Shown here: piece by piece, positions 2,345 to 51,170 of the stretch
Layout: each line of letters begins with the position of its first letter
How positions within the stretch are numbered: position 1 is the stretch's first letter
Assembly: GCA_041630155.1 (NCBI GenBank)
Contig: JBFKLX010000002.1
Location: forward strand, 3,769 to 67,768
Length of the DNA: 64,000 nt
Source of the DNA: Acidobacteriota bacterium
Lineage (GTDB): Bacteria; Acidobacteriota; UBA6911; RPQK01; JANQFM01
Direction of reading: 5' to 3'
Made by a program: the position numbers and the translations under genes
The notes under the pieces: model-generated
Told to the model about the DNA's origin: nothing
What the model saw: only the letters and a program-made list of their open reading frames with translations
Database searches by the model: none

Positions 2345-2978
2345 CTTTCCGGATTTTGTCGTAGGGCTGCACGACGCTCGAGGCGATGTTGCTCAGGTGG
2401 GCGCTGATGCGCCTCAGAATGCGCGCTGCGGCCGAGTAGACCACGGCCAGGTCTGCGCTCAGATCGCTCTCCGCGATTGCCCGCGTCAGCTCGTCCAGCC
2501 GCCGCTTGAAGTCCAAGTGGTGGGCCATCACCTGCTTGGCCTCTTCGAGGTTGTCCTCGCGAAACGCCCGGATGCACACGTCGAACTGTGGCCGCAGCTC
2601 GGCCAGGATCTCTTTCAACCCGTCTCGAAACTTGCCTTGGCGACGGCTCTTGGCGAGAGGGATCAGCTCGCCCAGTCCGCGTGCGAAGTCCCCGATTCGT
2701 TCCGCGTCCTGACAAATGCTGGCCAGCAGCAGGCTGGCCACCAGATCCTGGCTCGGGTTGACCGCCAGGTGCTCCAGCACGCTCCGCCGGATCAGGCGTT
2801 CGTTCTCGTCCACGGTGTCGTCCATGCGGTCCAGGTCGACTTCCAGAGGCTGGTTGTCGAGGAAGGCCGCCGACGCCAAATCGAGCATCCTGGCCGACTG
2901 AGTCAGCATTTCTTCGATGTCGCGATAGGCGGCTTCGATCAAACGGGACTGGCCCTTACCGAACAAGCGCTCGAGCAT
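2328..2978 (-). CDS. PhoU-like (DUF47/PhoU family) phosphate-transport regulator partner of the Na/Pi cotransporter
   Basis: All-helical protein with repeated 'D..E..I' PhoU-like motifs. It overlaps the upstream cotransporter gene by 23 bp, which points to an operon. Confidence 0.6.
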   Translation of the reverse strand: MLERLFGKGQSRLIEAAYRDIEEMLTQSARMLDLASAAFLDNQPLEVDLDRMDDTVDENERLIRRSVLEHLAVNPSQDLVASLLLASICQDAERIGDFARGLGELIPLAKSRRQGKFRDGLKEILAELRPQFDVCIRAFREDNLEEAKQVMAHHLDFKRRLDELTRAIAESDLSADLAVVYSAAARILRRISAHLSNIASSVVQPYDKIRKDDEAD

Positions 2979-4191
2979 GATCCCCTCCTCCCAGAGAGCC
3001 CCGCTGTGCTCCAGCTTCCGGCGAGTGGGGTGGCTCCAGGAGACTGGACGCCGGTGACGCGTCCGCCGGCAATGCCGGCTTCAAACTCTCCTCAGGCGCC
3101 CCAAAACTCCCCGAAAGAAGCAACAGCAAAAGCGGGATACCGAAAAACACAATCAAGATATAGCTGACCGCCAGAGGGCGGCTGCGCACCGCCACGTCGC
3201 CCATCCAGCGCGCCAGCGCCAGCGGGATGCGACGAGTCGGCGGAGGAAGATAGATGAGCAGGGCGCCGCTGACGTTGAACATGAGATGGGCGAAGGCGAC
3301 CGTCAGCGCGGTGTGGCTCCCCAGGGCCAGCGACGCCATCAGAGCAGTCACGGTGGTTCCGATGTTGGCGCCGATCGTGAATGGAAAAGCCTGTTCCAGG
3401 GTGATGACCCCCGCAGCGATGAGCGGCACCAGCACCGAGGTGGTAATCGAGCTGCTCTGGACCATGACGGTCATCAGAATCCCGGCCAGGATGGCCGCCG
3501 CAACGGACCGAAAGAGCGTCCTGTGCAGCACGGCCTCGGCTTTGCCCGAGAGCACCTTTCTGAGAAACACCACCAGGTAGCGTAGAGCAAGAAACAGCAG
3601 GGTCACCCCCAGGATCAAGGTCAATGTCGGCGAGTGCCCCATGCCGTCGCTGATCGAGTCGGCCACGGGTCGAACCACCGCCCGCAACGGGTTCAGAAGA
3701 GGCATGCCTCCGGCGCCCTCCAGAAGATTGGCGAGCCAACTGGAGAAGCGCCCCAGGAATCCCAGGGCGAGTTCCAGCGGAAACAGCAACAGCACCGCCA
3801 TCCAGTTGAAGAAGTCGTGCACCGTGGCACCCGCGAACGCCCGCCGGAACTCCTCGGTGCGGTTCACGTGCGCCAGCGCCACGATGGTGTTGGTGACCGA
3901 GGTGCCGATGTTGGCGCCCATAATGATGGGAATCGCTCCCTCGATGGTCAACGCTCCCGCACTCACCATCGCCACGGTCATCGAGGTCGTGCTGGAAGAG
4001 CTCTGGACCAGGCTGGTGGCCAAAACACCCACGAACAGGCCCACGAACGGGTTGGAAGTGGTCTCGATCAGGGCCTCGGCGAACCCTTTTCCGAACAGCT
4101 TGAAAGCCAGCTGCATCATTTCCAGGCCGAGGAAAAAGCCATAGAGGAGAACCGCCAGGGTCAGCAACCGCGCCAGCATGCCCTTCATCAA
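2956..4191 (-). CDS. Na+/phosphate cotransporter (NptA / Na-Pi cotransporter II-related family)
   Basis: Duplicated 'QSSS.TTS' and 'GANIGT.VT' repeats characteristic of Na/Pi-II transporters. Multiple TM helices. Confidence 0.85.
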   Translation of the reverse strand: MMKGMLARLLTLAVLLYGFFLGLEMMQLAFKLFGKGFAEALIETTSNPFVGLFVGVLATSLVQSSSSTTSMTVAMVSAGALTIEGAIPIIMGANIGTSVTNTIVALAHVNRTEEFRRAFAGATVHDFFNWMAVLLLFPLELALGFLGRFSSWLANLLEGAGGMPLLNPLRAVVRPVADSISDGMGHSPTLTLILGVTLLFLALRYLVVFLRKVLSGKAEAVLHRTLFRSVAAAILAGILMTVMVQSSSITTSVLVPLIAAGVITLEQAFPFTIGANIGTTVTALMASLALGSHTALTVAFAHLMFNVSGALLIYLPPPTRRIPLALARWMGDVAVRSRPLAVSYILIVFFGIPLLLLLLSGSFGAPEESLKPALPADASPASSLLEPPHSPEAGAQRGSLGGGDHARALVR

Positions 4192-6514: not shown

Positions 6515-6621
6515 AGAAAGTCCTCATTGTATGGGTTGGGCGGGAGTCTCTACAAGCCACGGGTTGGAAACTCCGGCGTCTGCCTGCTGCTGGGGCCGAG
6601 GCTGATTCGCCGGTAAAGCCT

Positions 6622-7719
6622 TCACAGCAGCACGAAGTCGTTGCGGTGCACGACGGGGCCGTAGCTGTAGCCCAGGCGCTCCTCGATGCCACTGGAATGG
6701 CAGCCGGCGATGCGCTCGAGGGCCTGGCTCGAATAGCGGCTGATGCCTCTCCCCAGCTCTTTCGACTCGGGGTCCAACACGACCACGGCGTCCCCCCGCT
6801 CGAACTGGTTCTCGACGCGCAGCAGACCGGCCGGAAGCAGCGACCTGCCCTGCTCGGCCAGCGCGCGGGCGGCGCCAGCGTCCACCTGCAGGCGGCCGCT
6901 GGGTTTGGGTCCCGCCAGGATCCAGCGTTTGCGGTTCTCGAGCGGGCTCTCCAAAGCCGCGAAACGCGTCCCTCGAGGCTGGCCCTGGAGGACGTCAGAG
7001 ATCACTCCGGGAATGCGTCCCGAGGCGATCACCACATCGGCGCCGGCCCGGCGTGCCAGATCCGCCGCCTGCAGCTTGGTGATCATCCCACCCACTCCCA
7101 GGCCGCTGACGCTCTCTCCGGCCAGGCGCTGGATCGACTCGTCGATGTCGCGCACCTCCGGGATCAGCTCTGCTTCGGGGTGGCGGCGAGGATCGGCCGT
7201 GAACAACCCGCTCTGGTCGGTCAGCAGCAGGAGTAGATCGGCTTCGGCCAGGATCGCGACCCGCGCCGACAGATTGTCGTTGTCTCCCACTTTGATCTCG
7301 TCCGTGGCCACGGCGTCGTTTTCGTTGACGATCGGGATGATGCGCTGCGACACCAATGCCTGCAAGGTGTCGCGGGCGTTCAGAAAGCGGTGGCGGTCTT
7401 CCAGGTCTGCCCGGGTCAGCAACATCTGTCCCACCCGGATGCCGTAGATGTCGAAGAGGCGCTCCCAGCTGAGCATCAGGCGACTCTGCCCCACCGCCGC
7501 CAGCATCTGCTGGTTGGTGAGTGTCGGGGCCAGCTCGGGGAATCCCAAGACTTCCCTCCCCGCCGCGATGGCACCCGAGGTGCAGAGGACCACCTCCAGG
7601 CCGCCGGCGTGCGCTTCGGCAAACTGGCGCACCAGCTCCAGCATCTGGGGACGGTCCAGGCTGCGGGTACCCCCCGTCAGCACGCTGGTTCCCAACTTGA
7701 CCACCAAACGCCGGTACAT
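6622..7719 (-). CDS. proB: Glutamate 5-kinase with C-terminal PUA domain
   Basis: 'VVKLGTS.LT', '[10 protein letters not shown]' and 'GDNDNLSA' motifs, plus a C-terminal PUA domain. The start is placed at the MYRRL methionine (residue 57 of the track ORF); the upstream extension is R/P-rich and non-conserved. Confidence 0.9.
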
Positions 7720-38794: not shown

Positions 38795-39705
38795 GTCAGG
38801 TCCATTTCCCGTTTCCCGAAGAAGAACTCCTCAGCACGGGGCACCTGGGTTGCCAGGGCTGCGGCGCCGCTCTGGCCATGCGCCACGTGCTCAAAGGCCT
38901 GGGCGAGAAGACCGTCGTGGTAATCCCGGCTTGTTGCTGGTCAATCATCGCGGGCCCCTTCCCCTATTCGGCCCTCCGCGTCCCCGTGTTGCACACGGCT
39001 TTCGAGACAGCAGCCGCGTCGGCTTGCGGGGTGCGGGCCGCGCTGGACTGCAAGGGGGACCGCGAGACCACGGTCATGGCTTGGGCGGGAGACGGCGGGA
39101 CCTTCGACATCGGACTTCAGGCACTTTCCGGAGCCGCCGAGCGGAACGAGAACATCCTTTACGTGTGCTACGACAACGAGGCCTACATGAACACGGGTGT
39201 CCAAAGCAGCTCGGCAACCCCCTGGGGCGCCTGGACTACCACGACTCCCGATTACAAGAAACAGTCCAAGAAGGACATCATGCGGATCATGGCGGCTCAC
39301 GGGATCCCCTACGCCGCAACCGCATCCGTGGCTCACCCGGATGACCTGGTGCGGAAAGTGCAAAGCGCCCGGGACATCGAAGGGATGCGTTTCCTGCACG
39401 TGCTGGCGCCCTGCCCACCGGGCTGGAAGATCCCCTCCGAGCTCGCGATCAAGCTGGCCCGTCTGGCCGTCCAGACACGGATGTTTCCCCTCTTCGAAAT
39501 CGAAGACGGCCTGCGCTGCCGGCTCAGCCCGGTGGCCGACCCGCAACCGCTCGAAGAGTACCTGCGCCTGCAGGGCCGCTTCAGCCATCTGAGCGAGCGG
39601 GACGTCCAGCACCTGCAACGGATGGTGGACGAGCGCTGGGAGCAGCTCGAGAACTGGGCGGCACGCGAGCCCGTCTCGACGCCGGCCGTGCCGGCGAAGT
39701 CGTAA
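38791..39705 (+). CDS. porB: 2-oxoacid:ferredoxin oxidoreductase beta subunit (TPP-binding)
   Basis: 'CQGCG' motif. 'GDGG.FDIG...N' is a TPP-binding GDG...N motif. 'VCYDNEAYMNTG'. ATGA overlap with porA. Confidence 0.85.
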   Translation: MSQVHFPFPEEELLSTGHLGCQGCGAALAMRHVLKGLGEKTVVVIPACCWSIIAGPFPYSALRVPVLHTAFETAAASACGVRAALDCKGDRETTVMAWAGDGGTFDIGLQALSGAAERNENILYVCYDNEAYMNTGVQSSSATPWGAWTTTTPDYKKQSKKDIMRIMAAHGIPYAATASVAHPDDLVRKVQSARDIEGMRFLHVLAPCPPGWKIPSELAIKLARLAVQTRMFPLFEIEDGLRCRLSPVADPQPLEEYLRLQGRFSHLSERDVQHLQRMVDERWEQLENWAAREPVSTPAVPAKS

Positions 39706-39920
39706 AAGCCAGCATCCCTCGCCAAACCCGCGCGCCAGCGCTCCTGGTCGACGGCCCGGCCGATCCGCGACTCTTCGCCGGCGGCCTGGCACCCCAGCCG
39801 AGGCGTTCCCATTCACCCCCTCGCCGTCCATCGCGCCCCTGCCGATCCACCGATCCCAGGCCTCCACTGCCAGCCTTCGCCATCCCCTCTCCACAGCAAC
39901 CGAGTCGCTGTCCAGAGAGG

Positions 39921-39965
39921 CTCGATTTTCACTCACGTGTCACATTAGATTCTAGAATCTAAATA
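39921..39965. repeat. AT-rich 45-bp element, copy A (ctcgattttcactcacgtgtcacattagattctagaatctaaata)
   Basis: Direct near-identical copy of the element at 40530-40573. Strongly AT-rich in a roughly 65% GC genome. Contains the -10-like sequence TAGAAT. Confidence 0.7.
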
Positions 39966-40140
39966 TCTTCATAAAATAGAACTCTTCTCCTATTAGATCC
40001 CGTACTGGACACCCGGCTGAAAGAGAATTGCCCTGTCCCCTTTCCCGTCCCCTCTCCCGCTTGTGCTCGGGGGTTCGACCCGGCGTCGGTCCGATTGTGC
40101 CCTGTCCCCAGCCGGCCATCCGCACGGGCGGATCTGTGCC

Positions 40141-40192
40141 CTGTCCCCAGGTTTTTCGCTGTCCCCAGGTTTTTCTGTCCCCAGGTTTTTCG
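40141..40192. repeat. Tandem repeat, three units of CTGTCCCCAGGTTTTT(CG)
   Basis: Three adjacent units of 18, 16 and 18 bp seen directly in the sequence. Each unit embeds the second half of the dispersed motif (TGTCCCC). Confidence 0.8.
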
Positions 40193-40529
40193 ACCCGGTT
40201 TCCAGCTGTGACCCCGGGAGGTCTGGAGGTCTGAAGGCAGACGGAGAGTGTGTGAATCCTGCCCTGTCCTCATTCTCCGTTCGTTCCCACCTCGTCCCCG
40301 TCAGCCGGCCTCGGTCCGACTTCTGCCCTGTCCCCAGCCTGTCTGCCGCCTACGTCGAGGGCCCAGACGAGGCTCAACCGTTGGCCGGCATCCTCACACA
40401 CGGTCGACTCGTTGCGATTCACAACCCACTCCCACCCTCATCGCTGCCCTACCTCTCTGACGACTCGAAGCCCACCCTCGCCACCCTCGCCACCCTCCCC
40501 ACAAACCCCGAATGGCTGCCTGACACGCG

Positions 40530-40573
40530 CTCGACTTTTACTCATTTTTCACATTAGAACCTATAATCTAAAT
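40530..40573. repeat. AT-rich 45-bp element, copy B (ctcgacttttactcatttttcacattagaacctataatctaaata)
   Basis: Direct copy of the 39921 element (about 80% identity). Contains a perfect TATAAT. Confidence 0.7.
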
Positions 40574-41373
40574 AGCCGTAAAAAAGTTATTAATCTTAGG
40601 CGCAATTCCGTTCCCTGATGGAAACGAGCTGCCACAGAGTTGTCCAGCCCCTGTCACCCGGCCCGTCCGATTCTGCCCTGTCCCCAGTCTGCCCAGCCTG
40701 GCGAGAGCCAAGGGAAATTCACGAAGCTGCTGGAATCCTGGCCCGCGCCGCCTGGCAGGCGTCACATCTGCCCTATCTCCCAAGAGCCTTCGATCGGGTT
40801 TCAGCGGTGAGCTCCTGGGGGTCTGGATGCAACGGTTGTCCTGAATCTTGCCCTGTCCCCTATGATTCCCTTCTGCGCACTCTGCCGGGGACGGAGAATC
40901 GCTGAGGCGCGGCTGCCTGGTTGGGTGATCTGACCCGTGGGGGGTGCTTATTACACTGCCTGCTGGAAGCATCACTGTTCACACACTCCGAACCCACCTC
41001 TTCAATCTGAACAGTCCCCCGCGCTCCCCTTGCGCTCTGAGGATGACCCGGGCTGGCTCGGGTGGCCGCGCCTCGAATGACTCTCTGGCACATTGGGCTG
41101 GCTGCCTCGGCTCGGCCGGAAGGCCCTTCAGCACAAGGCTTCCCGCGCTTCGCGACGCATCAAATGCGAATCGCAGGCCAATCGAGCCGCAGCAGCTCCC
41201 GGGCCGGGATCGACCGCCTTCTGCGCCGGTCATCCCCGATCCGAGGGGACTCGGCAACCGATTGGCGAGCCGACAGCGGTATAGAAGTTGCTTCGCTGTC
41301 TGCATTCGACGGATTAGAGAATCCGGTACACGCAGAATGCTTTCGAGCCGCATTTCTGGAAGGGGGTCCAGCT

Positions 41374-43071
41374 ATGACAAGGCGAACTTTACGACTCAGC
41401 TTACTGGCAATCACGATCTCCGTGCCAGCCTTCGTGCGGGCCGATGGAGACTATCGCTCGGTCGACACGGAGGGTCCTGAGAGCCGCTCTGGCCACACCC
41501 TGAGCGGAGTGTACATGTTCGGAGGTCGGAGCGACGAAGGAGACGTCTTCGATGAACTCTGGGAGTTTGGCTTTGATGGGGAGACTGGCTTTGATCCTGA
41601 ATGGAACGAAGTGCCTTTCATTGACCCCTGGCCCGCGGGGCGCTGGGGTCACGTCTCCTGGGTCTCGGACCGCTACCTTTACATTGCGGGCGGCCGCGGC
41701 GCCGACTCCCAGTTCATCCCGGACGCGTGGCGCTTCGACACCGTCGCCAGGACCTGGCAGGAGATCGAATTCTATCCAGGCCCGCACCAGGTCGCCGGAG
41801 GAGCCGCCTCACACGACAACAACGGCTACCTGTTTGCCACCGAGGACGGCGCGATCCATACGTACGACGAGGAGACCAACCAATGGGAGACGCTACTCCC
41901 CGACAGCGGGCCCACCCAGCGCTCTCATAGCACCGTGGTCCAGAATATCCCCCCCGGACCCGCCAATGGTCAGCAGCCGCTTCAGAATGGCAACTCGTCG
42001 AAAGCCTGGGTGATCGGCGGTGCCAACGCGTCTGGCATCTCGAGCGAAGTTTGGGAGTTCGACTTCGCCACTCAAAGCTGGACCCGGCGGGCCGATCTGC
42101 CCGTGGCTCTGTCCAGCCTGGCCGGAGCTTACGATGATCAGCGAGATCGAGTGCTGGTTTTTGGCGGCGTGAGCCCCGAGGGTTTCAGCCGAGCCACCTG
42201 GGAGTACGATCCCGCCACGGATTCCTGGACGCGACGTCTCGACATGCCTGAGGCCCTAGTACTGTCCGGGGCCACGGCCACTGGCGAAGGGGGAACAATC
42301 ATCTTCGGGGGCCGCAGGAGCGACCAGACCGCTTCGGGACGAACACTCGCCTATCGCTCCGGCGAGACCCTGTACATGGCTCAGTTCGGCAACGGCCAGG
42401 GGTTCACCAGCGACATCGTGTTGGCCAACCCCACCGCCGACCAGACAGCTTCGGGCACGATTTCCTTTGCCGGAAACGAAGGACTTCCCCTGGAGGTCAC
42501 GATCGTGGGGGACACTGGATCAGCGTCCGCTCATCGAATCATTCCCCTTCAGGCCGGTTCAGAGGTGGAGTTCTCCATCCCTCCGCGAGCCAGCATCACG
42601 CTGTCGACGGACGGCCAAGGCGATTTGGTCGAGGGCTCCGCACGGGTTCTCTCAAACCTCCGCCTGGGAGGAGTGATCCGCTTCAGCATCCCCGCAATCG
42701 GGATTGCGGGCGTGGGGGCGAGTCCCCCGATGGACGGTTTCATTGTCCCGGTGCGACGCCAGGCGGGAGGTATCAACACCGGTCTGGCCATCTTCAGCCG
42801 GGAAGTGAGGCCGGTCACTCTCGTGCTGACGCTCTACAGTGATGGTCAGCAGATTGCGACCACGACGATCGAAGATTTCGTGGCCCGGGCCCACCTGGCC
42901 CGCTTCATCGATGGCCTCTTTCCCGAGGTCGACACCACCGACTTCGTAGGAACAGTGGTGGTCGAAGTGATCGACGGCCAAGTCACTGCCACGGCCCTTG
43001 AGCTCGGCCGCCAGCCCGGCCAGTTCACCACTCTACCGGTGACTCCCCTGGAGCCGAGCCCCAGTTCGTGA
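41374..43071 (+). CDS. Secreted Kelch-repeat (galactose-oxidase-like beta-propeller) protein with a C-terminal beta-rich domain
   Basis: Signal peptide 'MTRRTLRLSLLAITISVPAFVRA'. Repeated 'GG...W.FD/YD....W' Kelch blades. The start is placed at residue 105 of the track ORF. Confidence 0.7.
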   Translation: MTRRTLRLSLLAITISVPAFVRADGDYRSVDTEGPESRSGHTLSGVYMFGGRSDEGDVFDELWEFGFDGETGFDPEWNEVPFIDPWPAGRWGHVSWVSDRYLYIAGGRGADSQFIPDAWRFDTVARTWQEIEFYPGPHQVAGGAASHDNNGYLFATEDGAIHTYDEETNQWETLLPDSGPTQRSHSTVVQNIPPGPANGQQPLQNGNSSKAWVIGGANASGISSEVWEFDFATQSWTRRADLPVALSSLAGAYDDQRDRVLVFGGVSPEGFSRATWEYDPATDSWTRRLDMPEALVLSGATATGEGGTIIFGGRRSDQTASGRTLAYRSGETLYMAQFGNGQGFTSDIVLANPTADQTASGTISFAGNEGLPLEVTIVGDTGSASAHRIIPLQAGSEVEFSIPPRASITLSTDGQGDLVEGSARVLSNLRLGGVIRFSIPAIGIAGVGASPPMDGFIVPVRRQAGGINTGLAIFSREVRPVTLVLTLYSDGQQIATTTIEDFVARAHLARFIDGLFPEVDTTDFVGTVVVEVIDGQVTATALELGRQPGQFTTLPVTPLEPSPSS

Positions 43072-43145
43072 AGAATGAGTCACGGGGTACGGGAAGGAGC
43101 ACGAGGGGCAGGGCACTTTGTCCGGCTTGCCTCCTACAAAAAAAT

Positions 43146-43231
43146 TGCCCTGTCCTCACTCCCGAGAGTGCCCTGTCCCTGTCTCCAACTAGACTCCCAA
43201 CTAGAAGGTCGATGAAGTTTGCCCTGTCCCC
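43146..43231 (+). repeat. Second cluster of the TGCCCTGTCC[CT]C motif, three copies
   Basis: Copies at about 43146, 43169 and 43220. They lie between the convergent Kelch gene and the Cys-rich protein gene. One further copy sits at 51110-51121. Confidence 0.7.
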
Positions 43232-43362
43232 AAAAGATAGTCCCCAAAAGATAAAGAGAAGAGAGAACGAAATCTGGAGTGAGCTTCCTCCCAGGGCAGG
43301 GGTATTCTCTCTCGCGCGAGTCTGAGGAATGGACTGGGTTCTTCGTGAGAGTGTTCAATTCA

Positions 43363-43803
43363 TCACTGCTTCACGACCACCTCGAATATGCACGTGCCAC
43401 CAACGGAACAGCTCCCCTCGCATGCGATGATTCCGTCGATGATCCTGACCTTGCAGTTGCTGGAACCACTCGAAGAACAGGTGCAACTGAAAGTGCCCTT
43501 GACTCCGGCTGCTCCCTGCTTTCTCAAAACCAGCCTGTTTCTGGCCGCGATTTCGAATTCGTAGCCTTTCTCGAGGCTCAGTCGATTTCCCTCCAGCTTC
43601 ACTCCCTCGGGAACTCTTCGTCGTTGGGTCACCGTTCGTCCGGGCTGCTCCTCGGACCCCTCGAAACTCTCGGCTGCGGCAACGACTTTGGCGCGTTCTC
43701 GGGGAGTCGAAGGGTAGGTGTGACCTGAACTTGTTGCTTTCTTTGCGATCGCCGGGGCCATCAGAATGACCGCCAGTGCCGGAAGCAGAATTCTCCCGCT
43801 CAT
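43363..43803 (-). CDS. Small secreted Cys-rich hypothetical protein (146 aa)
   Basis: Strong RBS, GGAGGAACaaaATG. Signal peptide 'MSGRILLPALAVILMAPAIA'. Six cysteines in the last 40 residues, 'CTCSSSGSSNCKVRIIDGIIACEGSCSVGGTC'. GC content and codon usage are lower than in neighbouring genes. Confidence 0.6.
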   Translation of the reverse strand: MSGRILLPALAVILMAPAIAKKATSSGHTYPSTPRERAKVVAAAESFEGSEEQPGRTVTQRRRVPEGVKLEGNRLSLEKGYEFEIAARNRLVLRKQGAAGVKGTFSCTCSSSGSSNCKVRIIDGIIACEGSCSVGGTCIFEVVVKQ

Positions 43804-44008
43804 TTTGTTCCTCCGTTTGTTTCAACTCGTTTCGTCAGGTCGGGATTCACCTTCCGCGAGAAGGCTTCACTGTTGCACTCCTTTCTAACCGAATCAGGTG
43901 GAAGTTTCAATGGGCCAGGTCTCTCTCGAGGCGAGGGCTCGGTGTGGTTGCACCGGAGTGGAGGTGCCGGAAAACTCCCGTTTCCCGCCACTGACGGCGC
44001 AACTCGGC

Positions 44009-44698
44009 TCAAGCGGGAACACTCATCGGTCGTCCGTTGTCCTTGGGTCCCAGGCCCAAGAGAAATGGAACGGCTCGTCTCGCCCACTGTCGGGGACTCG
44101 GATGGGAAGCCGCGCTTGGTCCAAAGCAGCTCTCCAACATCTGAGTGTGAATCACTCCTGGATTGAGAGGCACCGCCGCCATCCCTTCCGGTAATTCCTG
44201 GGCCAATGCGCGCGTCAGGCCTTCAATGGCCCATTTGGTCGCGCAATAGGGAGCCACCTCCCGCGACGTGGACCGCCCCCAGCCGGAACTGAAATTGACG
44301 ATCACGCCTCTGCCACGCTCGACCATCGCCGGTACGATGTGACGAACGAGGTGATACACGCCTTTGATATTGACATCCACGACCTTCGAAAACTCTTCGC
44401 CGGGGACTTCCCACAGGGGTGCGTTCCGGTTGATCAAAGCCGCGTTGTTGAGCAGCAAGTCGGGTGGGCCGAAATCGGCCAGGATGATTTCAGCCCAGCG
44501 GCGAACTTCCTCTTCGAGACACACATCGACGGTCTCGAAACGGTGCGGGCGCGGATAGCGATGGCGCAGTTCCTCAATCTGCTGTCGTGAGCGCGCACAG
44601 CCCAGCACGGTATGCCCGCGCCGAGCGAATCCATCCACCATCGCGCGTCCCAGGCCCCGGCTCGCACCAGTCAGCAAAACCCGTTTCGACTCCCCCAT
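44009..44698 (-). CDS. SDR family oxidoreductase
   Basis: 'VLLTGASRGLGRAM' Rossmann motif, 'NNAA', and YxxxK in 'YCATKWA'. Confidence 0.8.
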   Translation of the reverse strand: MGESKRVLLTGASRGLGRAMVDGFARRGHTVLGCARSRQQIEELRHRYPRPHRFETVDVCLEEEVRRWAEIILADFGPPDLLLNNAALINRNAPLWEVPGEEFSKVVDVNIKGVYHLVRHIVPAMVERGRGVIVNFSSGWGRSTSREVAPYCATKWAIEGLTRALAQELPEGMAAVPLNPGVIHTQMLESCFGPSAASHPSPRQWARRAVPFLLGLGPKDNGRPMSVPA

Positions 44699-44868: not shown

Positions 44869-45948
44869 TCAGGCAATCTTGCGCAGCTGTCGGTAGAGCG
44901 TGTCGCGCTGGGCGGGGACGTAGCCGGCTTCTTCCACGAGCCGGATCAAATCCTGGCTGGTGGCCTTGCGGTGGGCTCCGGCCGAACTGATCACGTTCTC
45001 CTCGATCATGATGCTGCCCACGTCGTTGGCGCCGAAATGCAGGGCAATCTGGGCCACTTTCAAGCCTTGCGTCAACCACGAGACTTGGATGTTCTGGATA
45101 TTGTCCAGGTAGATGCGGCTGACCGCCAGCAGGAGAAGATACTCAACCGCTGAAACCTCGGTCTTGATGGTCTGGGACATCGGCGTCCCTTCCAGCTGGA
45201 CGTTCCAGGGAATGAACGCCACGAACCCTCCGGTCTCATCCTGCAGGCGGCGCAGTCTCTCCAGGTGTTCCACCCGCTCCTCCAAAGTCTCGCCCCCCCC
45301 GATCATCATCGTGGCGGTCGTCAGCAGGCCCTCTTCGTGAGCAATGCGCATGATGTCGAGCCACTCCTGCGCAGTACATTTGCCCGGACCGATTTCCCGG
45401 CGCATCCGTTCGGTCAGGATCTCGGCGCCCCCCCCTGGGATGGAATCCAAGCCCGCCGCCTTGAGGCGACGGATGGCCTCCCGAAAGGAGATCCGGCTCA
45501 GCCTTGCCAGGACCACGATTTCCGGGGGGGAAAAGCAGTGGAGGTGAATCGGGAAGCGCTGGCGGATGGAGCGCAACAGATCTTCGTAGTAATCGATCTT
45601 CAAGTCGGGATTCATGCCCCCCTGCATGAGAATCCCAGTTCCCCCCAGTTGGAGCGTTTCCTCGATCTTGCGAAAGATCTCCTCGTGCTCCAGAAGGTAG
45701 CCTTCCTCGTGCCTGGGCTTGCGATAGAAGTTGCAGAAGGTGCAACGTGCCACGCAGACGTTGGTGTAGTTGATATTGCGGTCGATCAGAAACGACACAA
45801 TGTTGCCGGGATGCTTGCGGCGACGGACGCAATCGGCCGCTTCGCCGATGGCGGCCAGATCGTGCGACCGCAGCAGCACGAGACCCTCCTCGGGCGTGAG
45901 GCGTTTCCCTGCCTGAACCGACTCGAGGATTTCCGGAACACTCCTCAT
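44869..45948 (-). CDS. Radical SAM enzyme of the MqnC/MqnE/CofH family (futalosine-pathway type)
   Basis: 'NINYTNVCVARCTFCNFY' is a CxxxCxxC motif in MqnC/MqnE-like context. 'GGTGILMQGG'. The C-terminal barrel is shared with MqnC/MqnE/CofH. The start is placed at M51 of the track ORF. Confidence 0.7.
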   Translation of the reverse strand: MRSVPEILESVQAGKRLTPEEGLVLLRSHDLAAIGEAADCVRRRKHPGNIVSFLIDRNINYTNVCVARCTFCNFYRKPRHEEGYLLEHEEIFRKIEETLQLGGTGILMQGGMNPDLKIDYYEDLLRSIRQRFPIHLHCFSPPEIVVLARLSRISFREAIRRLKAAGLDSIPGGGAEILTERMRREIGPGKCTAQEWLDIMRIAHEEGLLTTATMMIGGGETLEERVEHLERLRRLQDETGGFVAFIPWNVQLEGTPMSQTIKTEVSAVEYLLLLAVSRIYLDNIQNIQVSWLTQGLKVAQIALHFGANDVGSIMIEENVISSAGAHRKATSQDLIRLVEEAGYVPAQRDTLYRQLRKIA

Positions 45949-46116
45949 CCTCACTATTGTAGAGGCTTGTTCGGACCGGCGCCAAGTGGGCGCGACGGGT
46001 GAGCTGCCCGCCGGCGGCGGGAAGCTCCCCATCGACGAGCCAAGCCAGCTCCGGGATTCGGGTCGCGGCTCAGCGCGATTCGAGCGGCCCACGGCCAAAT
46101 CGACTAGAATGAAGGC

Positions 46117-46755: not shown

Positions 46756-47415
46756 ATGAACCCGGAAGCACTCATCATTCTGGAGCAAAGCGTGCGTTGG
46801 GCGCTGTTGGCCTTCCTGGGCAGCTTCCTCATTTTGGCGCTCTACAGCTGGACCCGCCTGCGGCGACGACGCCGGGGGCTGGCCGACCTGATGCACGAGC
46901 AGTTGGACGCGGAGCTGAGCGAGGCACTGGGCCTGGACGAAGCCCAGGACACCGCCCTCCAGCTCACCCCGTCCAACCGCCTGCGGCCGTTTTTCTACTC
47001 GTTTCTGCTGGCGGGCGTCGTTTCCGTGGCCACCTTCCTGCTGTGCAGCTTCGCTCCCCTCCCTTTCCTGCACAACTTCGCCACCGAGGCCAGCTGGCGT
47101 GAGACGCCGTTGCGACTGACCGCAGTCGATTACGAACGCTTCTTCGAGGGGTTCAGTCTGGAGGGGCAGGTCTGGAACCAGCAGGATCAGGCTCTCGCCT
47201 CGATCACGGCGCACATCGAGGTGCTGGACGCGCAGCGCCAGGTGCTGGACGAGGTGAGTGCACAGGTGAAGCCAACTCCGCTGGCCCCGGCCCAATCGGG
47301 GAAATTCGAGGTGCGTTACACGGAGAACTCCCCCCTGATCTACGGTTACCGAATCGCTTTCCGGGACGCCGAAGGCAACCAGATTCCGCATGTTGAAGGG
47401 TTCGAGATTCGCTGA
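46756..47415 (+). CDS. Hypothetical membrane protein (two TM helices plus a soluble C-terminal domain)
   Basis: Hydrophobic segments 'WALLAFLGSFLILALY' and 'FFYSFLLAGVVSVATFLL'. The large minus-strand ORF antisense to it looks like compositional noise. Confidence 0.45.
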   Translation: MNPEALIILEQSVRWALLAFLGSFLILALYSWTRLRRRRRGLADLMHEQLDAELSEALGLDEAQDTALQLTPSNRLRPFFYSFLLAGVVSVATFLLCSFAPLPFLHNFATEASWRETPLRLTAVDYERFFEGFSLEGQVWNQQDQALASITAHIEVLDAQRQVLDEVSAQVKPTPLAPAQSGKFEVRYTENSPLIYGYRIAFRDAEGNQIPHVEGFEIR

Positions 47416-49147
47416 ACACCCGTTGGCCGGTCTGATTCCCTATCTGGGCCGCTATCGCGCCAAGCTGCTGCTGGGGACCGGAATGGTGCTGGCAACCAAC
47501 GCGGTGGCGGTAGTCACACCCTGGGTGCTGGGACGCGCCATCGACGACCTGAGGCTGGAAGTCACCCGTGACAAGCTACTGATCTACGCCACGGTCCTGG
47601 TGGGGCTCAGCGCTCTGGAGGGGGTCTTCCGTTTCCTGATGCGCAGCGTGCTGATCGGCACCTCCAGGCGCCTCGAGTTCGACCTCCGCAGCGACCTGTA
47701 CGCCCATCTGTTGCGCCTCACCCCTTCGTTTTACCAGCGCTACACCACGGGGGACCTGATGTCGCGTGCCACCAACGACCTGAGCGCCGTGCGCAGTGTC
47801 CTGGGGCCGGGCATCATGTACTCTCTGAACACCCTGTTCACCACTGTTCTGACCGTGAGCCTGCTGATCTCGATCGACCCGTCGCTGGCCCTGTACACCC
47901 TGATTCCACTGGTGGCGGTCTCGGTCTGCGCCCGCTATTTCGGCAGCCAGATCCACCGACGCTTTCGAAGCATTCAGGAGCAATTCTCGGAACTGACTTC
48001 GCTGGTTCAGGAAAACGTGGCGGGCATGCGGGTGGTCAAAGCCTACAACCAGGAGCCGGCCTTCGTCCGGCGCTTCGCCGAGAGCAACCGGATCTACGTG
48101 GATCGCAGCCTGGGTCTGGCCCGTATCTCGGGACTCTTCCACCCCAGCCTGGCCCTGCTGTTGGGGCTCTCTTCGCTGACCCTGCTCGGCCTGGGGGGAT
48201 GGAAGGTGACGTTGGGTGAAATCAGCCTGGGAGACCTGGTCGCCTTCATGGCCTATCTGGCCATGCTCACCTGGCCCACCATTGCCCTGGGCTGGGTGAT
48301 CAACATCGTGGAACGCGGCTCTGCATCGATGCGGCGAATCCAAGACCTGCTGGACTCACGACCGGCAATCTCGGTTCCGAACTCTTCAGCGACAGACATC
48401 ACCGCCGGTTCCATTGAAGTTTCCGATTTGAGCTTCGCCTACGACGGACCCCAGGCCCTGCAGGACATCAGCTTCGAGGTGCCAGCCGGCTCCACACTGG
48501 CGATCGTGGGCCGCACCGGATCGGGGAAATCCACACTGGCCAACCTGCTCTGTCACTTCTATCCCGTGGAGCGCGGCCAGATCCGCATCGACGGCGAGGA
48601 TCTGAACGACATCCCGCTGGAAGTCCTGCGCCGCCGCATCGCCTACGTTCCTCAGGACACGTTCCTATTCTCGGACACGGTGCGCGGAAACATCGCCTTC
48701 GGACGCCCCCAGGCCACCCGGGACCAGGTCGAAAAGATGGCCCGCACCAGTGACATCTGGTCCGACATCCAGAGATTTCCCGAGCAGTTGGACACCTTCG
48801 TGGGCGAGCGCGGGGTGACCCTGTCGGGGGGCCAGAAACAGCGCATCGCCATCAGTCGCGCGCTGCTCGTGGACGCTCCCATCCTGATCCTGGACGATTC
48901 ACTGTCCAGCGTGGACACCCAGACGGAGGAACGCATTCTGGAGCGGCTGGCAGGGCAGCTGCGAAAGCGCTCGGCGATTGTCATTTCCCATCGGATTTCG
49001 ACGGTGAAGGGGGCCGACCAGATCCTGGTCATGGACGAGGGCCGAATCGTCGAACGCGGCACGCATCGCCAACTGGTGGATCAGGAGGGACTCTACCGGC
49101 AGCTTTATGAGCGGCAGCTCTTACAGGAGGAGCTTGGAATCGAATGA
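47390..49147 (+). CDS. ABC transporter permease/ATP-binding fusion (type I exporter, MsbA-like), half 1
   Basis: Six-TM domain followed by Walker A 'GRTGSGKST', signature 'LSGGQKQR' and Walker B 'ILILDD'. Confidence 0.9.
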   Translation: MLKGSRFAEHPLAGLIPYLGRYRAKLLLGTGMVLATNAVAVVTPWVLGRAIDDLRLEVTRDKLLIYATVLVGLSALEGVFRFLMRSVLIGTSRRLEFDLRSDLYAHLLRLTPSFYQRYTTGDLMSRATNDLSAVRSVLGPGIMYSLNTLFTTVLTVSLLISIDPSLALYTLIPLVAVSVCARYFGSQIHRRFRSIQEQFSELTSLVQENVAGMRVVKAYNQEPAFVRRFAESNRIYVDRSLGLARISGLFHPSLALLLGLSSLTLLGLGGWKVTLGEISLGDLVAFMAYLAMLTWPTIALGWVINIVERGSASMRRIQDLLDSRPAISVPNSSATDITAGSIEVSDLSFAYDGPQALQDISFEVPAGSTLAIVGRTGSGKSTLANLLCHFYPVERGQIRIDGEDLNDIPLEVLRRRIAYVPQDTFLFSDTVRGNIAFGRPQATRDQVEKMARTSDIWSDIQRFPEQLDTFVGERGVTLSGGQKQRIAISRALLVDAPILILDDSLSSVDTQTEERILERLAGQLRKRSAIVISHRISTVKGADQILVMDEGRIVERGTHRQLVDQEGLYRQLYERQLLQEELGIE

Positions 49148-50922
49148 CGGCTCCCTGGGAAGAGAAAGACCGCAGCGGCTACGATTCCCACCTGGCACGC
49201 AGGCTGTTCGGCTACCTGGCTCCCTACCGAAAGGTCGTGGCCACGGCCGTGGTGCTGCTGCTGGGATTGTCGGCGGTTCGCCTGGCTGGCCCCTATCTCA
49301 CCAAGGTCGCCATCGACGGACCCATCCGCAACGAGGATCCGCAGGGATTGCTCTACATCACCTTGCTGTTTCTGCTGCTCCTGATCGCCCAGTTCGGACT
49401 CGGTTATCTCCAGACGTACTGGACCAACTGGATCGGGCAGCAGGTCATGTCCGACCTGCGCCGCCAGCTTTTCGGGCACCTGCAGAAACAGGACGCGGCC
49501 TTCTTCGACCGCACGCCGGCCGGCCGCATCATCACGCGCATCACCAATGATGTCGACGTCATGAACGACTTGTTCACGTCCGGCGTAGTGAGCGTCTTCG
49601 GAGACGCCTTCTCGCTGCTCGGAATCGTTGTGATCATGCTCCTGATGAACTGGAAGCTGGCCCTGGTCTGCTTTTCAGTGATTCCTTTGCTCTTCCTGCT
49701 CACGCTCTGGTTCAAGCTGCGGGTGCGCGACAGCTACCGCCGCGTTCGGGGGGCCGTAGCCGCCATCAACGGCTTCCTGCAGGAGAGCTTCACCGGCATG
49801 GCGGTCACCCAGATGTTCGTTCAGGAGGGGCGTAAGTTCGGAGAGTTCGAAAAGCACAACCGCCGGCACATGCAGGCCAACCTCGACTCCATCTTCTACT
49901 ATGCCGTCTTCTACCCCGCCGTCAACCTGGTGGGGGCCCTGGCGATCGCCCTGATTCTCTGGGCGGGCGGCATCCAGGTCCTGGACGCCGGGCTCACCCT
50001 GGGAGCAGTCGTAGCCTTCATTCAGTATTCGGAACGCTTCTACAAACCGATCAGCGACTTGAGCGAAAAGGTCAACATCCTGCAGAGCGCCATGGCCAGC
50101 GCAGAACGCATCTTCGGACTCCTGGACACGGGACCGACCATTCGACCGCCCCAGCGGCCGCACCGTGCCCCCGTGCAGGGCCAGATCCATTTCGATCGAG
50201 TCAGCTTCTGGTATCGGGAAGGGACGCCGGTGCTGCACGGAGTCGATTTGAGAGTCGAGCCGGGAGAGAAAGTCGCCATCGTGGGGGCAACCGGTTCGGG
50301 AAAGACGACGCTGATCAACCTCCTGGGACGGCTCTACGACGTCTGTGAAGGGGCCGTTCGGGTCGACGGGACGGACCTCCGACAGTGGGAACCGGAGGCC
50401 TTGCGGCAATCGATCGCGGTCGTACTACAGGACGTTTTTCTGTTCAACGGCAGCGTCGGGGACAACATCCGGCTCTGGAGCGGGCGGGTCACGGATTCAG
50501 CGGCTCAACAGGCGGCTCGCCGGGTGGCGGCTGACCGCTTCATCCAGCGGCTGCCCGCTGCTTACCAGTCCCCCGTGCGGGAACGGGGCTCGGCGCTCTC
50601 GGTGGGACAGCGACAGCTCCTGGCGTTCGCCCGTGCGCTGGCCCACGATCCCCGAATTCTGGTCCTGGACGAGGCGACCTCGTCGGTGGACACGGAAACC
50701 GAACAGCTCATTCAGAAGGCGCTGGCAGAGCTCATGGAGGGGCGCACCGCCCTGATCATCGCCCACCGTCTGTCGACCATCCAGCATTGCGATCGGATCG
50801 TCGTGCTTCACCGGGGCGAAATTCGGGAGGAAGGCACCCATCAGCAGCTGCTGCGGCAGCGCGGCATCTACTTCAAACTCTACCAGTTGCAGTACAAGGA
50901 CCAACTGGTCGACGCCGTCTGA
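49144..50922 (+). CDS. ABC transporter permease/ATP-binding fusion (type I exporter), half 2
   Basis: Walker A 'GATGSGKTT', signature 'LSVGQRQL' and Walker B 'ILVLDEATS'. Overlaps the upstream partner, so the two likely form a heterodimeric exporter. Confidence 0.9.
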   Translation: MTAPWEEKDRSGYDSHLARRLFGYLAPYRKVVATAVVLLLGLSAVRLAGPYLTKVAIDGPIRNEDPQGLLYITLLFLLLLIAQFGLGYLQTYWTNWIGQQVMSDLRRQLFGHLQKQDAAFFDRTPAGRIITRITNDVDVMNDLFTSGVVSVFGDAFSLLGIVVIMLLMNWKLALVCFSVIPLLFLLTLWFKLRVRDSYRRVRGAVAAINGFLQESFTGMAVTQMFVQEGRKFGEFEKHNRRHMQANLDSIFYYAVFYPAVNLVGALAIALILWAGGIQVLDAGLTLGAVVAFIQYSERFYKPISDLSEKVNILQSAMASAERIFGLLDTGPTIRPPQRPHRAPVQGQIHFDRVSFWYREGTPVLHGVDLRVEPGEKVAIVGATGSGKTTLINLLGRLYDVCEGAVRVDGTDLRQWEPEALRQSIAVVLQDVFLFNGSVGDNIRLWSGRVTDSAAQQAARRVAADRFIQRLPAAYQSPVRERGSALSVGQRQLLAFARALAHDPRILVLDEATSSVDTETEQLIQKALAELMEGRTALIIAHRLSTIQHCDRIVVLHRGEIREEGTHQQLLRQRGIYFKLYQLQYKDQLVDAV

Positions 50923-51170
50923 CCCACCGGCTGAATGGGCTCAGGCTGCTGTGCCCGCTGGTCCTGGTGTTCCGATGGGTCGATCATCTTTCGCGGAGTC
51001 GCCACTCCGGATCCTGTCGATCCTGTGATCCCTCCCGAGACCCGGATTCGATTCCGGAGACAGGACAGGATCCTCCGAGCCTCGGCGGGGAAACCCGGTC
51101 GAGGGAACTTGCCCTGTCCCCCAAAATGGGGCACCAAGCCCCGCGTTGCTGCACGGGGCGGGGGCGGATG

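Follow-up and report, generated by a model that had tools for sequence, protein, structure and literature searches.

The 146-aa protein encoded by the minus-strand ORF 43363-43803 of the window (the 64,000-nucleotide stretch of DNA analysed here as a whole) is a member of an unannotated six-Cys family seen only in uncultured environmental bacteria of the Bacteroidota, the Acidobacteriota and the window's own lineage. It belongs to a familiar general kind, the small exported disulfide-rich proteins of bacteria. The features of its sequence are best explained by a stable extracytoplasmic protein with a non-catalytic binding or accessory role and probably three disulfides, a reading to which we give a probability of roughly 45%. 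The coordinates of the gene, the protein segments and the adjacent features are collected in Table 1.

Table 1. Features of the six-Cys gene and its convergent neighbour (window positions)
Feature	Position	Strand	Basis or content
Complete gene, 146 codons plus stop (43363-43365)	43363..43803	-	ORF list, sequence, HMMER matches to 59 other clusters
Shine-Dalgarno GGAGGA, 5-nt spacer to ATG	43809..43814	-	Read from sequence
Predicted signal peptide, residues 1-20 (MSGRILLPALAVILMAPAIA), predicted cleavage AIA/KK	43744..43803	-	Read from sequence
Variable low-confidence linker, residues 21-63	43615..43743	-	AF2 pLDDT, family alignment
Conserved ~85-aa cationic domain, predicted all-beta, residues 64-146 (PEG…LEKGYEF…GTFSCTC…)	43366..43614	-	Alignments A1 and A2; AF2
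Six-Cys module: C107, C109, C117, C128, C132, C138; spacings 1, 7, 10, 3, 5	43390..43485	-	Family alignments
565-aa Kelch beta-propeller protein, convergent neighbour, N-terminal signal-like segment	41374..43071	+	Pfam Kelch families
Convergent spacer, 291 bp, between the Kelch and six-Cys genes	43072..43362		Two GCCCTGTCC(C/T)C motifs (43147, 43221), tandem GTCCCCAAAAGATA x2

The ORF starts at the earliest start codon that its frame allows, and the ribosome-binding site of consensus strength that the sequence-only reading had described is present ahead of it. The low GC, the weak adaptation of its codons and the alternative ORFs of similar length that overlap it could also be explained if the ORF were spurious and lay in an intergenic stretch of low GC. 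Against that interpretation stand the strong ribosome-binding site, the family-wide homology, which was found in the coding frame of 43363-43803 only, and the GC3 of this frame, the highest of the three. Since homology is confined to this frame and its GC3 exceeds that of the other two, the ORF is on sequence grounds a real gene; a spurious ORF is refuted by the homology across the family and has practically no probability left. A word-indexed homologue search retrieved an identical protein (P0001) from five MAG contigs that share the neighbours of the gene; in DNA, the four other MAG copies of the locus are 99.8-99.9% identical.

Gene composition was compared with that of 178 in-frame 441-nt chunks from 39 long window ORFs taken as genes. 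The GC content of the six-Cys gene is 0.574, a value as low as which was found in none of the 178 chunks (mean 0.639, sd 0.024). Its GC3 is 0.639, compared to 0.783 +/- 0.066 in the chunks (3.4% equally low) and to 0.765 expected from its own amino-acid composition and the codon usage of the window, and its CAI-like index is 0.569, compared to 0.692 +/- 0.067 (4.5% equally low). The lower GC content and the more A/T-ending codons noticed by eye were thus confirmed, all three values falling within the lowest 0-5% of the chunks. A GC3 of 0.66-0.69 is also seen in several other window genes, including the neighbouring SDR gene, and the compositional dip, although genuine, is of moderate size: it places the gene in the tail of the distribution without making it a gross outlier.

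Family membership and domain architecture

The family came to light only when 1.84 billion cluster representatives were searched exhaustively with phmmer; 60 proteins were returned at E<=1e-3, nearly all of 100-170 aa. The 59 relatives of the six-Cys protein among the 50%-identity cluster representatives match its residues ~55-145 at E-values from 2.3e-10 (40% identity) to 1e-3. Word-indexed searches found just 1 protein with the single sequence, 8 with the full-length profile and 9 with the domain profile, and no relative was found when GTDB representative genomes were scanned with the single protein. The window ORF matched the local family HMM (A2) with E = 3.8e-25, a partly circular value since the window domain contributes one of the 56 rows of A2; the independent evidence for membership is the single-sequence phmmer search. 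Among the hits, a protein of 3878 aa (P0016) was rejected as a member, having eight weak partial repeat matches that lack the Cys pattern.

Family members share a signal peptide, a variable linker and a domain of ~85 residues (full-length alignment A1; domain-only alignment A2) with the consensus PEGxxIxGxxxxLKxGYxF…NxV…R…GxFxCxC…GxC…I…C…C…C. Residues G80, C107, C117, C132 and C138 (query numbering) are invariant, and G67, C109 and C128 are at least 90% conserved. Exactly six Cys are present in 55 of the 56 domains, in the pattern C-x(1-2)-C-x(5-12)-C-x(~10)-C-x(2-7)-C-x(0-5)-C, where the C3-C4 spacing is nearly always 10 and the last two Cys range from adjacent (CC) to 5 residues apart. The domains carry a net positive charge in 52 of 56 cases (median pI 8.9), and among the 56 full-length members, 50 have a segment of strong hydrophobicity at the N-terminus. 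Two tandem domains occur in P0005 and P0008, and an extra N-terminal region in P0002 and P0027. The query displays all four of the features that define the family: a signal peptide followed by a linker, the PEG, GYxF and N motifs (P65-E66-G67, L76-E-K-G80-Y81-E-F83 and N89), the Cys signature, and similarity over the whole domain. The named members come from MAGs of Chitinophagaceae, Ferruginibacter, other Bacteroidota, Blastocatellia and Thermoanaerobaculia, are all annotated as 'hypothetical protein', and gave nothing relevant in literature searches by accession number and keyword.

In the N-terminal sequence of the six-Cys protein, MSGR + ILLPALAVILMAPAIA + KK, the n-region, the h-region and the AxA-type site expected of a Sec signal peptide can be recognised, with a hydrophobic core of 16 residues that leads into the cleavage site predicted by the -3/-1 rule. 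These features, together with the conserved Cys, bear out the earlier view of a small Sec-secreted protein with a six-Cys module. That view had placed the module at the C-terminus; the module is present, but it is just the C-terminal half of the larger conserved beta domain that defines the family. Likewise, the protein is 146 aa long as described, but it does not end in the Cys string (residues 107-138): it continues for eight further residues, IFEVVVKQ, which make up the final strand predicted in the AF2 model.

The linker is rich in Lys, Glu, Pro and Thr, varies in length and cannot be aligned between family members; in an AF2 run without alignment, pLDDT fell below 50 at residues 24-27 and 41-61. 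The same run gave an overall pLDDT of 64, which rose to 81 (pTM 0.60) when the family alignment was supplied, and the resulting model has eight beta strands and no helix. The domain has a net charge of +6 and a pI of 9.3. An internal duplication of the domain was considered and found unsupported (N-terminal versus C-terminal half, hhalign probability 1%).

Comparison with known families and folds yielded no assignment, as had been anticipated by eye. Neither Pfam nor NCBIfam contained a significant match for the query, the 57 aligned members giving scattered noise only; PADLOC was negative for the protein and its neighbours, PDB sequence searches for the protein and the family, and Foldseek for the AF2 model. 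No housekeeping homologue with genome-typical codon usage, which would have spoken against the sequence-only reading, was found, and the codon usage of the gene itself is atypical. The only Pfam match of the query at E<=10 was DUF6520, likewise a family of short uncharacterised bacterial proteins; membership was rejected, with E = 0.18 over 17 residues, 12.7 bits versus a gathering threshold of 25.4, and a match in one of 57 members. A 40-residue stretch of the family profile, covering strands 4-7 and with three Cys in register, matched Tctex-type dynein light chains (PDB 1ygt, 8j07 and related entries) with a reproducible but marginal E of 0.02 in two profile searches. Those proteins are eukaryotic, cytosolic and of alpha/beta fold, whereas the six-Cys model is all-beta, and no Tctex structure was present among the 50 best Foldseek PDB matches of the model; given the marginal E, the short match and the lack of Foldseek support, the resemblance to Tctex/DYNLT was treated as chance or convergence.

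The family is a well-defined addition to the 'dark matter' proteins of bacteria, with a clean signature (signal peptide, PEG…GYxF motifs, six Cys and a fixed 10-residue C3-C4 hairpin) and with no curated model, solved relative or Foldseek match in the libraries searched. Taken alone, the six-Cys protein is one further domain of unknown function, which overturns nothing and makes no long-standing question testable.

Proposed binding role and competing functions

We propose that the signal peptide is removed after AIA20, leaving a mature protein in which a flexible linker of ~40 residues would precede a compact cationic all-beta domain of ~85 residues. Once outside the cytoplasm, the six conserved Cys would form three disulfides. 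The fixed 10-residue C3-C4 spacing would span a tight hairpin between strands 6 and 7 of the model, and the variable C2-C3 and C4-C6 spacings may correspond to disulfide-closed loops. Since C5 and C6 are separated by 0-5 residues and are adjacent in some members, each would bond to a different, more distant Cys; a candidate map is C1-C5, C2-C3 and C4-C6. The protein may act as a ligand or an inhibitor; alternatively, it may pair with anionic material of the envelope or matrix, or with co-encoded propeller or beta-helix proteins. No catalytic or known-family signature was found for it in Pfam, NCBIfam, PADLOC or PDB.

Formation of disulfides is an assumption of this proposal, and the six Cys could bind metal instead. 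Copper or zinc sequestration, or envelope redox chemistry such as a thiol-disulfide relay, would fit the CxC motif, which together with the four other conserved Cys could form a cluster site, and the Chitinophagaceae locus abuts thioredoxin, rhodanese, Pyr_redox_2 and sulfur-transport genes. These redox genes, however, lie on the opposite strand and in one orthologous region only, the highly variable spacing of the last two Cys (0-5) is unusual for a fixed metal site, and the family has no conserved His, Met or Asp co-ligands and no match to a metal-binding family. We therefore regard a metal or redox function as quite improbable.

Tendamistat, an alpha-amylase inhibitor, and the neocarzinostatin apoprotein are small secreted, disulfide-stabilised all-beta binders with no enzymatic activity. 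The likeness of the six-Cys protein to these examples would cover Sec export, a size of 70-115 residues, an all-beta build, disulfides and a non-enzymatic binding role. In contrast to them, the six-Cys protein would be stabilised by three disulfides instead of two; it has a long disordered linker, derives from MAGs of Bacteroidota and Acidobacteriota rather than from Streptomyces, and gave no sequence or Foldseek match. The same general build, shared with known small disulfide-stapled all-beta inhibitors, would suit a secreted proteinaceous inhibitor of a foreign or co-encoded hydrolase, in the style of tendamistat, SSI or the periplasmic lysozyme inhibitors. Enzyme-like or fibre-like secreted proteins, for example Peptidase_S74 and an M14 peptidase, are encoded near family members, and the conserved surface motifs PEG and GYxF could make a binding edge. 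On the other hand, no inhibitor family was matched in sequence or fold, and no single enzyme family recurs beside the family members. An inhibitor in this strict sense is unlikely.

The sequence-only reading had compared the Cys pattern with small disulfide-rich toxins and bacteriocins. As a secreted antimicrobial, the protein would be a cationic toxin, stabilised by disulfides, that harms competitors by damaging their envelope. This would agree with a small exported domain of high pI and six conserved Cys, with the atypical codon usage, and with a patchy spread across phyla in environmental MAGs only. Members are also encoded in regulated secreted-protein clusters, and that of locus L005 includes two further six-Cys secreted paralogues. 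The comparison with defensins extends to the six conserved Cys, the net positive charge and export, but their mature peptides, of the CS-alpha-beta or beta-defensin type, are of 30-50 residues and fold with three disulfides into a helix and sheet or into three strands, whereas the conserved unit here is an 85-aa domain of eight predicted strands; as this unit contains no predicted helix, it is not defensin-shaped. No defensin family of Pfam matched the protein or other family members, and there was no significant match to a bacteriocin or toxin family.

The suggested check for an adjacent immunity-like gene in relatives found none conserved among the called genes of the 11 contexts examined; these genes also included no conserved small membrane protein on either side of the family member, and neither a C39-peptidase ABC exporter nor any other dedicated exporter. 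The leader is a Sec signal peptide, not of the double-glycine type. An ABC pair of the window (47390-50922), of the generic ABC_membrane and ABC_tran type, lies 3.6 kb away on the other strand. A downstream gene of 71-72 aa is conserved within Chitinophagaceae only and encodes neither a signal peptide nor a membrane segment, and no plasmid or phage copies of the family were found. The likeness to toxins comes down to a small, cationic, Cys-rich protein. These comparisons lend no support to a toxin role, which we consider rather unlikely.

A six-Cys C-terminal region near a radical SAM gene (44869-46098), which lies ~1 kb upstream on the same strand, would also suit a RiPP precursor of the SCIFF, ranthipeptide or sactipeptide type that is matured by the encoded enzyme. 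This reading was rejected because the radical SAM protein is an MqnC equivalog of menaquinone biosynthesis (496.7 bits versus a cutoff of 428.1), with CofH_C and no SPASM domain. In addition, no radical SAM family was found among the called genes beside the 10 relatives examined, and a Sec signal peptide with a folded 85-aa domain is unlike the ~45-aa precursors. A RiPP precursor is effectively refuted and its probability very small.

Gene neighbourhoods of family members

Under the proposed exported binding role, the Kelch protein convergent with the six-Cys gene is a possible functional partner. The pairing of the two genes is kept in all MAG copies; on the other hand, they are convergent and not co-transcribed. 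The C-terminal ~230 residues of the window Kelch protein (…YMAQFGNGQGFTSDIVLANP…) match no Pfam family.

A propeller gene also adjoins the family member in other genomes. In L005, a secreted six-Cys protein of 185 aa is followed by a Kelch protein (directly upstream of the family member), the family member itself, a paralogous six-Cys protein of 182 aa and several unknowns, with an ECF sigma factor, an anti-sigma factor and a CHAT-TPR protein encoded on the opposite strand. The Kelch proteins of L005 and the window were rejected as orthologues: their similarity is at the repeat level only, and the adjacency is therefore not an inherited pair. The two secreted paralogues that flank the Kelch gene and the family member in L005 (182-185 aa; 3212-3769 and 6517-7065) have a motif of their own (…CKDxxxxxCxGGxxCGTLGSNWGKG…CAC…) and constitute a second unannotated Cys-rich family.

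In the Chitinophagaceae loci L008 and L099, the order is several unknowns, a bPH-like protein, an NHL propeller directly upstream of the family member, the family member and a 72-aa protein, with a LytTR regulator and a TPR histidine kinase on the opposite strand. The bPH-like protein recurs in three Bacteroidota operons with a family member (L008 1746-2096, L099 3391-3837 and L014 2270-2638) with 44-88% identity, and the L014 protein matches bPH_3 with E = 5.5e-5.

Locus L012, which holds P0002, the closest relative of the query, and L098, from a Thermoanaerobaculia MAG, both have a Trans_reg_C-TPR regulator on the opposite strand, followed by small secreted CARDB/CLIPPER-like proteins and the family member. 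The two regulators (L012 272-2254 and L098 5-1828) are 40% identical over their full length, which suggests a conserved cassette of a regulator and secreted proteins. L098 contains two family members in tandem (2422-2748 and 2762-3136) and then a BNR propeller; the first of the two, as called, has no signal peptide. In L097, the family member lies between a fibre-like Peptidase_S74 protein, itself preceded by a CHAT protein, and a beta-helix protein; a TPR-CHAT protein is encoded on the opposite strand. The theme of propellers, secreted proteins and TPR regulators is missing from L011 and L100.

The neighbourhoods are heterogeneous, and no neighbour family is universal. A propeller directly adjoins a family member in 3 of ~10 independent contexts, which looks commoner than a background of ~1-2%, this background being our own estimate and the comparison a lead only. 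The picture that often recurs is one of regulated operons of uncharacterised secreted proteins, including large beta-propeller and beta-helix proteins. In a broader and doubtful version of the binding role, the family would have an undescribed fold and serve, as adaptor, inhibitor or ligand, as the dedicated small partner of large secreted propeller or beta-helix proteins in signal-regulated 'secretome cassettes'. It is similarly conjectural that such cassettes would be governed by ToxR-like Trans_reg_C-TPR proteins, histidine kinase-TPR proteins, or an ECF sigma factor with CHAT-TPR across Acidobacteriota, Bacteroidota and relatives. If true, such cassettes would be a new kind of extracellular module, serving the interaction of microbes with one another or the remodelling of surfaces. 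A small, easily expressed family member offers a way into the role of regulated secreted-protein clusters in the hard-to-culture phyla of soil and water.

Genomic setting and the motif-rich stretch

Horizontal acquisition of the gene had been suggested from its lower GC content, its codon usage and its position next to a motif cluster. The compositional dip and the proximity of the motifs stand, but the dip is modest, the hallmarks of an island are missing and the setting is that of the core chromosome. The window contains no tRNA, and no mobile-element families of the integrase or transposase type were found among the ~20 window products scanned; integrase and transposase families were also missing from the called genes of 11 related loci. 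Searches of plasmids and phages by tblastn and a scan of viral contigs gave no relatives of the six-Cys protein, and known relatives lie on chromosomal contigs of up to 1.9 Mb. Upstream of the gene on the same strand are an SDR gene and then mqnC, and the core chromosomal genes around it encode MqnC, PPDK, ThrS and DapL. The window PPDK is at most 76% identical to that of a Chloroflexota MAG, 71% to Acidobacteriota and 70% to Myxococcota homologues. The patchy cross-phylum spread and the low GC3 are compatible with horizontal acquisition, but because the hallmarks are absent and the nearest relative of the protein is only 40% identical, it is neither excluded nor demonstrated.

The gene does lie near the motif cluster, as had been noted. 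The oriented motif GCCCTGTCC(C/T)C occurs in 11 copies in the window compared to 0.15 expected; seven are at 40030-40860 and two in the 291-bp spacer that follows the stop codon (43147-43231), with others at 51111 and 7790. Its plus-strand CTGTCCCC cores are intergenic in 10 of 11 cases. In the spacer, an exact tandem duplication of GTCCCCAAAAGATA at 43226-43253 overlaps one copy of the dispersed motif. No site resembling a terminator was found in the spacer, the RNA fold of which is not unusual (z = +1.05), and Rfam gave no match within 39500-44100.

Most copies belong to a motif-packed 1.67-kb stretch upstream of the Kelch gene (39706-41373), in which no long ORF has coding-like third-position GC. 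This stretch has a strong negative GC skew, contains a tandem CTGTCCCCAGGTTTTTCG x3 at 40141-40192, and may represent an array of sites bound by a regulator, or else a dispersed repeat. Also within it (39945-39962 and 40549-40574), an AT-rich 57-nt repeat, the two copies of which are 609 bp apart and 77% identical, carries the 18-bp perfect palindrome TTAGATTCTAGAATCTAA, which looks like an operator-type site.
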